Assembly: GCA_963733035.1 (NCBI GenBank)
Contig: CAVTBU010000005.1
Location: 800,001 to 864,000 of the forward strand
DNA: 64,000 nt
Direction: 5' to 3'
Origin: Pirellulales bacterium
GTDB taxonomy: Bacteria > Planctomycetota > Planctomycetia > Pirellulales > PALSA-1355
Shown here: positions 32,310-42,288 of the stretch, in pieces
Layout: the number at the start of each line of letters is the position of its first letter
Numbering within the stretch: the stretch's first letter is position 1
Notes under the pieces: model-generated
The model's input: the letters and a program-made list of their open reading frames with translations, nothing else
What the model was told of the DNA's origin: nothing
The model's database searches: none
Position numbers and translations under genes: made by a program

Positions 32310-33837
<1,528 letters not shown>

Positions 33838-38243: not shown

Positions 38244-39492
38244 ATGGCTACCGCGACTCCCCTGAAACGTGATAACGTCAGTAAGGCACTTTCCGCGGCA
38301 CTCGATGCGGGCGCAGGACTCCTGCGGCTCACGCCAACCTGGGTACCGCGCAGCTTCCTGCATCCTGGCAAGCGGATCAAGTTGGCACCGGGCGATTGGT
38401 ATGCATTTGGGGCGCATCGCGGCGGTATCGACGAACGCTGGTTTGCCAGCACGACTGAGGCGGCCAACGAAAACCGTACGCCGGACGAAGGCCTAAGCTA
38501 CATCACGCACGGCGGCAAGCGGTTCACATTGGCCGATGCGGTGGCTGAGGACGGCGAGCGGCTCATCGGCAAGGCCATGTTCGACAAGTACGAACGGTGG
38601 CCGGTCTACTCGAAATTCTTCGACAACATGGGGCCCATCCCGCATCACATGCACCAGGGCTTCAAGCATGCAGCGCTGACCGGTCAGCAGGGCAAGCCCG
38701 AGAGCTACTACTTTCCGCCGCAATACAACAACGTCGACAACAACTTTGCGTACACGTTCATGGGCCTCGAGCCGGGCACAACCAAGGCCCAGCTTCGCAA
38801 ATGCCTGGAAGACTGGCACAAGGGAGACAACGGCATCCTCGATCTGTCGAAAGCCTATCGCCTGAAGCGGGGCACGGGCTGGCTGATCCCTCCGGGCGTG
38901 CTGCATGCCCCGGGCTCACTGTGCACTTACGAACCCCAGTGGGGCTCCGACGTGTTCGGCATGTTTCAGTCTCTGGTCGAGGGACGCGAAGTCCCCTGGT
39001 CGCTGCTGGTCAAAGACGTTCCCTCGGACAAGCACCAGGATCTCGACTTCATCATCGAACAGCTCGACTGGGAAAAGAACGTCGACACGCATTTCAAGGA
39101 GCATAATTACCTCGAGCCAATCGTTGACGCATCACGTAGTGGCAATGGTTGCACCGACCGCTGGATCGTCTACGGCACAATCGACGGCGAGCAACTCTTT
39201 ACGCGCCAAGGAACTGACGCTCGAGCCGGGCGCCAAGTGCACGCTCAAAGATCCCGGCGCCAGCGGCTGGATCACCGTGCAAGGCCGTGGCCGGATCGGG
39301 AAGCTGGCCCTGCAAACGCCCGCCATGATCCATTTCGGCGAAGAAACCGAGGACGAGGTGTTCATCACGCACGAGGCCGCCAATGCCGGCGTCGAAGTGG
39401 AAAACACCGGCAGCGAACCGCTGGTCAGCCTACGCTACTTTGGGCCCAACACGCACAAAGACCTGCCGGCCGTTGGGGACTATTTGAAGTAG
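38244..39492 (+). CDS. Cupin / mannose-6-phosphate isomerase-like protein; frameshift near 39204
   Basis: KFFDNMGPIPHHMH, KPESYYF, PGVLHAPG, EPQ. C-terminus AKELT...LRYFGP is in the +1 frame. Confidence 0.7.
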
Positions 39493-39498
39493 GAGGGT

Positions 39499-39608
39499 AG
39501 TGATTGGTGATTAGTGGTTAGTGGTTGGTGTGCAGCAAACAGGCACCAATACGCCGCGGCACCATCACAACGAATCTCCTTCGCACTAACCACTAATCAC
39601 CAATCACT
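39499..39608. repeat. Perfect 25-bp inverted repeat built of heptamers (empty element)
   Basis: AGTGATTGGTGATTAGTGGTTAGTG (39499-39523) and its exact reverse complement (39584-39608), separated by a 60-nt spacer. Confidence 0.92.
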
Positions 39609-39609
39609 C

Positions 39610-40649
<1,040 letters not shown>

Positions 40650-40650
<1 letters not shown>

Positions 40651-41130
40651 GTGATTGGTGGTTGGTGGTTAGTCACACGATGAATTCAGGTGCTGGATAC
40701 GCATCGTGGACAGGAAACCCTCGGAACCGAAGATCCAATCTTTCCGCGACTTGGTCGTTTGGCAGCGTGCGATGGTACTGGCCGAGCGAGTTTACGCGGT
40801 AACACAGGATTTCCCGAAAGCAGAAACTTACGGACTCACCGCCCAGATGCGGCGAGCGGCCGTTTCGATTGCGAGCAACATCGCCGAAGGACAAGGCCGC
40901 AACGGCAGGAGGGAGTTGCTACAATTCCTGGGGCACGCGCGAGGACCTCTCGCAGAGCCGAACACTCAAATCATGTTGTCCGCCCGACTGGGCATGTGCT
41001 CCGTGGAAAGCGAACGGGAACTCACCAGTTTGGCCACCGAAGTGGGCCGACTACTCAACGCCCTGCGGACTTCACTGAAAAAACTCGACGACGACTCCCA
41101 CTAATCACTAACCACCAATCACCAATCACT
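40650..41130. mobile_element. Heptamer inverted-repeat-bounded cassette carrying a four-helix-bundle gene
   Basis: Left arm 40650-40673 matches the reverse complement of 41107-41130 at 23 of 24 positions. Same repeat family as 39499-39608. Mobility is inferred, not shown. Confidence 0.55.
40706..41104 (+). CDS. Four helix bundle protein (23S rRNA IVS protein / Avd-like family)
   Basis: [12 protein letters not shown]...[30 protein letters not shown]. Confidence 0.9.
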
Positions 41131-42288
41131 ATGTCCAAACCTCTCAATATCGGCATGATCGGCTACGGTTTCATGGGCCGGGCTCACTCCAACGCTTATC
41201 GGCAGGTGAGCCAGTTTTTCCAGCGCGAGTATCGGCCGGTGCTCAAGGCCTGTTGTGCTCGCAAGGAAGACAAGATCAAGGCATTTGCTCAAAACTGGGG
41301 CTACGAGTCCTATGAGACCGATTGGCGGAAGCTGATCGAACGGAAAGACATCGACGTAATCGACGTGGGATCGCCAAATAACACGCACAAGGAGATCGTG
41401 TTGACGGCCGCCAAGGCTGGCAAAATGATCCTCTGCGAGAAGCCGCTGGCCATGAACATCGCCGAGGCCGAGGAGATGTGTGAAGCGGTCGAGAAGGCTG
41501 GCGTGGCGAACATGGTGTGGTTTAACTACCGCCGCGTACCCGCCATCTCGCTGGCCAAACAGGTCGTCGACGAAGGCCGCATCGGCAAGCCATTCCACTA
41601 TCGGGCCACGTATTTGCAGGATTGGACGATTGCCAGCGACGTGCCGCAAGGCGGAGCGGCGCTGTGGCGCCTTGACGCGAGCGTGGCCGGCTCCGGCGTG
41701 ACCGGCGATCTGCTTGCCCACTCGATCGACACGGCCGAATGGCTAAACGGCCCAATCGCCCGCGTGACGGCTGCCACCGAAACGTTCGTTAAAGAACGTC
41801 AGCATGCCGAAACCGGCAAAATGCAGCCGGTTGGCATCGACGACGCCTGTATGTTCCTGGCGGTGTTCAAGAACGGATCGATGGGCACGTTCGAAAGCAC
41901 CCGCTACGCCCGCGGACGCAAGAACTACAACACGTTTGAGCTTAACGGTGAGGCGGGCAGCGTATTCTTCGATCTGGAAGACCCACAGTACCTGCAGTAT
42001 TTCAAGTACTCCGACCCCAAGACCGGCACGAAAATCGAGAGCCACCTGACCGGCTGGCAAAAGATCCACGTCACAAATCCCGAGCATCCCTACATGAGTC
42101 ACTGGTGGGTACCCGGCTGCACGATCGGCTACGAACACACCTTCATCAACGCCTTGGCCGACTTTCTGGAAAGCCTGGAAACCGGCAAGCCCGTTCAGCC
42201 CGACTTCCGTAGCGGGCTGCGGACGCAGAAGGTATGCGACGCGGTGCTGAATAGCGCCAAAAGTGGCGACTGGGTGGAGATCGCTTAA
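41131..42288 (+). CDS. Gfo/Idh/MocA oxidoreductase
   Basis: [31 protein letters not shown]. Confidence 0.9.

Follow-up and report, generated by a model that had tools for sequence, protein, structure and literature searches.

A gene-less hairpin with heptamer arms at a stop/start junction of a Pirellulales operon and its probable kinship with a PF05635 cassette

Hairpins and short tandem repeats that resemble the element presented here have been described in several bacterial and phage settings. The intervening sequence (IVS) in helix 45 of the Coxiella burnetii 23S rRNA encodes a PF05635 / S23p-type protein and, in the part of that report drawn on here, its stem is cut in the middle by RNase III while its ORF is reported to be decaying (PMC4990558). 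For Xanthomonas and Nostoc, the available portion of Rehm et al. 2015 describes G-rich heptamers that lie up to 50 bp after stop codons in the sense orientation and before ORFs in the antisense orientation, and these repeats are read there as G-quadruplex formers (PMC4692102). In genes 38 and 25 of phage T4, according to the section of the article used here, hairpins cut the spacing between the Shine-Dalgarno (SD) sequence and the start codon, 22 nt becoming 5 nt and 27 nt becoming 11 nt, respectively (PMC3014915).

Here, a stretch of 64,000 nt from a Pirellulales genome (contig CAVTBU010000005.1, positions 800,001 to 864,000; hereafter the window) was analysed. It holds an operon in which all genes run in one direction, in the order upstream gene, bare hairpin, TIM-barrel gene, PF05635 cassette and oxidoreductase gene, with the following features:

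38244..39492, + strand: upstream gene, family unassigned, present in the window as two frames (38244-39500 and 38905-39492), true stop TAG 39490-39492
39499-39523, + strand: left arm of the bare hairpin, AGTGATTGGTGATTAGTGGTTAGTG, a G-rich array of GTGRTTR heptamers that runs on to 39530
39524-39583, + strand: loop of 60 nt between the hairpin arms
39584-39608, + strand: right arm of the bare hairpin, the C-rich complement of the left arm, without an SD-like sequence
39610..40650, + strand: xylose-isomerase-like TIM-barrel gene (PF01261), start ATG 39610
40650..40673, + strand: left arm of the filled cassette, beginning with the last base of the TAA stop
40706..41104, + strand: PF05635 / TIGR02436 gene for a four-helix-bundle (23S rRNA IVS) protein of 132 aa
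41107..41130, + strand: right arm of the filled cassette, abutting ATG 41131
41131-42288, + strand: GFO/IDH/MocA oxidoreductase gene, starting with ATG 41131

Both elements reach from a stop codon to a start codon, and the bare hairpin takes up the whole stop-to-start gap between two operon genes. The initial annotation had described it as a perfect 25-bp inverted repeat around 60 nt with no ORF, and our inverted-repeat search confirmed this: the 25-nt arms at 39499-39523 and 39584-39608 are 100% complementary with 60 nt between them, and the loop at 39524-39583 contains no ORF. All three reading frames are shut at the left arm (TAG 39498, TGA 39508 and TAG 39512). The heptamer units within an arm differ from one another, yet the arms pair perfectly across 25 bp. 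Folding of the RNA, which had been suggested as a check, showed that the stem forms, the hairpin region reaching -72.1 kcal/mol (z -7.4; 0 of 200 shuffled sequences folded as well) and the hairpin folded alone -55.2 kcal/mol. By partition function, each of the 25 stem pairs has a base-pair probability of at least 0.88. In the 6.6-Mb genome, 401 perfect inverted repeats of at least 14 bp (spacing up to 1500) were found, and only 7, this hairpin included, reach at least 25 bp. The hairpin is thus far beyond chance.

Several known classes of element were considered for the hairpin and rejected. An intrinsic terminator does not fit, as the stem is followed by CAUGAACUCC and the required U-tract is missing; a promoter and terminator scan gave matches at chance level, with no + strand site at the hairpin, and an Rfam search of the hairpin matched no family. 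MITE and REP-type palindromes are likewise short, gene-less intergenic elements with inverted ends that resemble a larger gene-bearing element, but the element in the window has internally repetitive arms, no transposase and no target-site duplication (flanks GGT/CAT and ATA/ATG), and only two copies exist in 6.6 Mb, which speaks against a MITE. A G-quadruplex was rejected for this copy because its GTGRTTR units contain no G-tracts, while the GGGGTTR units of relatives could form such structures.

Concerning the flanking genes, the upstream gene at 38244..39492 had no match in Pfam or NCBIfam. As it is a single continuous frame in relatives, and as metagenome contigs from 3 runs have one base fewer than the window at 39202, the frameshift near 39202 (39195-39210) probably reflects strain variation or a mistake in the assembly rather than a pseudogene. 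The orthologues of the TIM-barrel gene align from residues 1-3, in line with a start at ATG 39610. The metagenome evidence consists of DNA contigs, and no single contig piece spans the entire stretch. One low-depth contig departs from the window at 39530, keeping the left arm and continuing into a different and shorter loop (a single contig), and a low-depth contig at 39592 hints at a right-arm variant with 6 extra bases, i.e. a change in unit number.

The filled cassette has arms of 24 nt (40650-40673 and 41107-41130) that are 96% complementary. Its gene at 40706..41104 scored 117.4 bits with the Pfam model and 114.1 bits with TIGR02436, and the closest solved structure to its protein is PDB 2gsc (E 6e-23), which is Xanthomonas campestris XCC0516 with 5 chains in the deposition. 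The structure comes from a species in which Rehm et al. 2015, as far as the available text goes, examined GGGAATC heptamer repeats (PMC4692102). The only rRNA gene in the window is a 16S gene at 32314-33837, and the genome encodes RNase III (219.9 bits against a cut-off of 166).

Compared with the ORF-bearing 23S rRNA IVS, the locus shows the same complementary flanks that form a stem and, in the full cassette form, the same PF05635 gene in the loop. It differs in that the element lies between protein-coding genes and not in an rRNA gene, in that its arms are tandem heptamer arrays, and in that the bare copy has no ORF; excision is, in our case, a proposal. The bare hairpin therefore has the long stem of an IVS, while the 23S insertion is missing and the PF05635 ORF in the loop is found only in the element at 40650-41130. 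We class it as a gene-less, IVS-like hairpin set in an mRNA. With the Xanthomonas and Nostoc heptamers, in what the available text of that report covers, the window shares 7-nt tandem repeats between co-oriented genes and the same strand asymmetry; that text mentions neither inverted arrays in pairs nor any association with a gene, and the GTGRTTR units of the window have no G-tracts (PMC4692102). Our literature search found no description of heptamer-armed PF05635 cassettes outside rRNA.

The initial annotation had also taken the bare hairpin for a non-autonomous derivative or scar of the cassette at 40650-41130. Across the 6.6-Mb genome, GTGRTTR arrays of at least 3 units occur only in the four arms of the two window elements, and the genome contains a single PF05635 gene (40706-41104). 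To follow the two junctions through evolution, the orthologous operon was taken from 30 genomes within the same family and order, and the loci were oriented. At the junction that carries the bare hairpin in the window, a broken PF05635 gene lies between the arms in L015, the cassette is duplicated and interrupted in L017, the arms enclose an unrelated ORF together with the tail of a PF05635 gene in L019, and an intact cassette is present in the metagenome locus L081. In L004 and L013 the hairpins are bare and consist of GGGRTTR units, and a single remaining arm or decayed arrays were found in L006, L010, L011, L012 and L021. In the same-genus genomes G002 and G003 there is no element at either junction and no PF05635 gene, the orthologous junctions being plain spacers of about 64 and 81 nt. 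This junction thus shows filled, broken, bare and empty states. Given these states in relatives and the heptamer family shared by the two elements in the window, the element at 39499-39608 is very probably a gene-less relative of the PF05635 cassette at 40650-41130. Of the features that define the cassette class, it has the inverted 7-nt tandem arrays and the stop/start site between co-oriented genes, and it has no PF05635 gene between its arms.

The kinship part of the earlier suggestion is upheld by the shared heptamers and by the states in relatives, but the loop provides no convincing gene remnant for the idea of a scar. When this junction was aligned from 16 loci, no convincing remnant of a PF05635 gene was recognised in the hairpin loop, and the loops and spacers were too divergent to align, so that neither a remnant nor a common origin is visible. 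The hairpin may therefore have arisen by deletion from a cassette or may never have contained a gene.

The junction between the TIM-barrel and oxidoreductase genes varies as well. It holds an armed PF05635 cassette in 8 loci (L001, L004, L005, L006, L007, L009, L013 and L026) and plain spacers of 57-98 nt in L002, L003, L010, L011, L014, L020 and L025. The heptamer type is common to both junctions within one genome and differs between genomes, and GTGRTTR arrays of at least 3 units are absent from all three same-genus genomes (G001-G003). In the metagenome, about 15 of 80 loci had arrays at one of the two junctions, with many heptamer types; near-identical versions of the locus with the site filled or empty were absent from the metagenome contigs, where the best match was 84% identical. 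In L022 the TIM-barrel/oxidoreductase junction contains a 554-nt insert with AATGTCT-type heptamer arms, which tblastn with the PF05635 protein of the window (E<=1e-5) did not match, and which may carry a different gene.

Gene-less hairpins are not limited to this operon. In G084, a genome of the same order, gene-less heptamer hairpins with loops of 11-51 nt were found in 6 of 17 fetched regions. There were at least 20 GTGGTTA array sites in this genome versus 5 PF05635 matches, none of which has GTGGTTA arms. This excess of gene-less arrays over PF05635 genes, with no GTGGTTA-armed gene among them, suggests that hairpins may arise or spread without a cognate gene. A PF05635 gene of the Q type (see below) in G084 does have GGAGTGG arms, which share the core AGTGG with the GTGGTTA arrays. 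The G084 regions (L061-L077) are rich in arrays, with at least five types of unit (GTGGTTA, GGGTTCA, GGATTTT, GGGTCTT and GCAATTC), and these often stand side by side in stacks or are nested as compound hairpins. A cassette in L168 is reversed, its PF05635 gene being preceded by the C-rich array and followed by the G-rich one.

The sequence of the arms varies together with a residue of the cassette protein. In 11 cassettes of the family, the residue after the invariant NIAEG was Q with GTG-type units and H or N with GGG-type units. This link was tested on 80 new PF05635 loci from many phyla, of which 66 were assignable after 14 had been dropped because their protein was truncated or their gene had no array close by, and heptamers were read in the register T-Y-R-G-n5-n6-n7. 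The dinucleotide TG or TT at n5n6 was present in 28 of 29 Q loci and in 3 of 37 non-Q loci (Fisher 3.5e-14, uncorrected for kinship). On the tree, residue and arm type need 15 changes each, and only 2 independent pairs lie on supported branches, which is too small a number to reach significance. In 19 disjoint nearest-neighbour pairs that differ in the residue and are 55-76% identical elsewhere, the arms shifted the same way in 16, the opposite way in none and were unchanged in 3, whereas the arms differed in only one of 28 nearest-neighbour control pairs of the same residue class, with the reservation that such pairs are not guaranteed to be independent. The PF05635 proteins did not cluster by arm type when compared by overall identity; it was the single column after NIAEG that stood out. 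Over the loci L161-L240 and L001-L081, Q went with TG or TT, H and N mostly with GG, K often with xC, Y with TA or GG, and R with CT.

This tracking of unit by residue suggests that the PF05635 protein may recognise its own arms, although the association could partly reflect co-inheritance of gene and arms. In the protein encoded at 40706-41104 the residue after NIAEG is Q, and the units of both window elements are of the TG kind, which would make the bare hairpin its second target. From this match in sequence, we tentatively consider the bare hairpin a putative binding site of the resident four-helix-bundle protein.

Taken as a whole, we regard the element as probably the gene-less form of a PF05635 hairpin cassette, with an IVS-like stem that would be cut by RNase III and bound by the resident protein. 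In the operon transcript, the arms would close into the 25-bp perfect duplex, as the stems of 23S rRNA IVS do, and the duplex would then be cut in the stem by the RNase III that the genome encodes. A perfect duplex of 25 bp is a standard RNase III substrate and, with the enzyme encoded in the genome, cutting of the operon transcript within the hairpin stem is a plausible step by analogy, with a chance that we put not far below even. After the cut, the downstream gene would be read from a short, G-poor and CA-rich leader without an SD, like most genes in this genome, and the hairpin would serve as a second binding site for the single IVS-type protein of the genome.

How such an element affects the start of the next gene can be approached from the geometry of the junctions. 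All 14 armed junctions among the 30 related loci have a left array that begins no later than the last base of the stop codon and a right array whose end is within 10 nt of the start codon (the arrays of L013 being read by eye, as the script missed one arm), which bears out the preference for stop/start junctions noted in the initial annotation. The strand asymmetry is constant, G-rich after the stop and C-rich before the start. An SD core (GGAG, GAGG or AGGA) at -18..-4 of the downstream start was found in 0 of 14 armed junctions and in about 17 of 31 unarmed ones; at both junctions of G002 and G003, for example, the ATG is preceded by AGGA at a distance of 10-13 nt. Where arms are present, they thus take the place of the usual SD of the gene that follows. 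Genome-wide, an SD core at -18..-4 was present at 28.8% of 2600 long-ORF starts versus 8.3% in a control window, by a survey with crude start calls, and among the SD-bearing starts its position peaks at -14..-9. With about 71% of the starts in the genome lacking an SD core, the loss of the SD at armed junctions would, on these sequence counts, need no special rescue.

In the window, the motif AGGAGG (39491-39496) overlaps the stop TAG 39490-39492 and the first, degenerate heptamer GAGGGTA. As had been pointed out earlier, it ends 2 nt before the left arm while ATG 39610-39612 starts 1 nt after the right arm, in which no SD (GGAG, GAGG or AGGA) is present, and the anti-SD is kept, since the 3' end of the 16S rRNA reads GATCACCTCCTTTCTA and carries CCUCC. 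On the basis of the genome background, AGGAGG is expected 0.0013 times per 10-nt window, and its presence here may not be pure accident. In the partition function, AGGAG 39491-39495 pairs with CUCCU 39615-39619 (P 0.87-0.99 in three sequence contexts), which leaves the AUG at 39610 in an internal loop between the 25-bp stem and this 5-bp helix (P unpaired 0.65-0.71). That CUCCU, the pairing partner, follows the AUG so closely likewise seems more than coincidence.

From the same geometry, a split ribosome-binding site had been proposed, in which the folded 110-nt hairpin would set AGGAGG beside the AUG at 39610 so that the 30S subunit could use both, as in T4 genes 38 and 25. The two motifs are 113 nt apart in sequence and lie 2 nt and 1 nt from the stem base when folded; the genome keeps the anti-SD CCUCC and uses an SD for part of its genes, AGGAGG is uncommon against the genome background, the right arm is free of an SD, and the window has lost the AGGA that precedes this ATG in the same-genus genomes. 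There is also the T4 precedent, where a hairpin between an SD-like sequence and an AUG shortens the effective spacing, but in the part of that report used here the spans are 22-27 nt with a free SD, compared with 110 nt, a 25-bp stem and an SD-like motif that is predicted to be paired and is not conserved in the window (PMC3014915). The hairpin thus shortens the distance as in T4, while its SD is, by prediction, not single-stranded and therefore not free, and the motif is missing from both related bare hairpins (L004 and L013). Among 12 armed junctions in which the script recognised the left array, only 4 have an SD core in the 14 nt preceding that array, the second element of the window (40650-41130) has no SD within reach, and in lineages farther away an SD follows the right array and precedes the ATG (L087, L088, L093, L115 and L135). 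As most starts of the genome do without an SD in any case, we consider a split ribosome-binding site very improbable, and this claim of the initial annotation is not sustained. Another use of the fold, which we also regard as unlikely, is coupling across the hairpin: the stem would set the upstream stop beside the AUG, the AGGAG-CUCCU helix would mask the start region, and a ribosome ending at UAG 39490 would melt the stem base and free the nearby AUG for re-initiation. The predicted AUG in an internal loop and the overlap of AGGAG with the stop codon agree with this, as do arrays that touch both stop and start in every armed junction and the lack of a conventional SD core in all of them. However, the AGGAG-CUCCU helix exists only in the window and not in L004 or L013, the filling of the spacer can equally be explained by array growth through slippage, and the 25-bp duplex would likely be cut by RNase III first. 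Were coupling to operate, the insert would stay almost invisible to coupled translation.

The elements could also be functionless by-products, either arrays that grow by replication slippage or decaying scars of lost cassettes, that persist where they do no harm. The half-arms and decayed arrays in the five relatives named above would be expected from such a process, and the right-arm variant in unit number hinted at by the low-depth contig, the loops that cannot be aligned and the many heptamer types at these junctions in the 80 metagenome loci are in keeping with it. It accounts less well for arms that pair perfectly over 25 bp although their units differ, for a constant strand asymmetry that is also seen in the Xanthomonas and Nostoc heptamers in the available part of PMC4692102, and for a protein residue that tracks the unit sequence. 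Overall, we judge it improbable that the hairpin is without function, and we favour an IVS-like hairpin that would be cut by RNase III and bound by the resident protein.

A wider version of the favoured reading, which we offer as a speculation of low probability, is that the IVS protein reads the units of its own arms and that gene-less hairpins are its targets in trans, the two together making up a two-part system at stop/start junctions that would control the cutting of transcripts or gene-to-gene translation. Within such a system, and with as much doubt, the hairpins would be protein-bound, self-closing RNA (or DNA) set exactly at stop/start junctions.

To our knowledge, neither the PF05635 proteins nor the heptamer repeats between genes have been explained so far, although bacteria very commonly have both. 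The locus described here provides a natural series: in this genome a single protein gene goes with a single filled cassette and a single bare hairpin made of the same units, and its closest relatives have none of the three. With the usual SD of the following gene gone from the armed junctions of the operon, the elements would not be neutral for the expression of the operon genes. If the link between residue and repeat holds, it would join rRNA IVS, dispersed heptamer repeats and the PF05635 family, and it is directly testable by binding. If gene-less hairpins are indeed targets in trans, this would give a first function to a very large uncharacterised protein family and likewise to the excess of 7-base repeats between bacterial genes.
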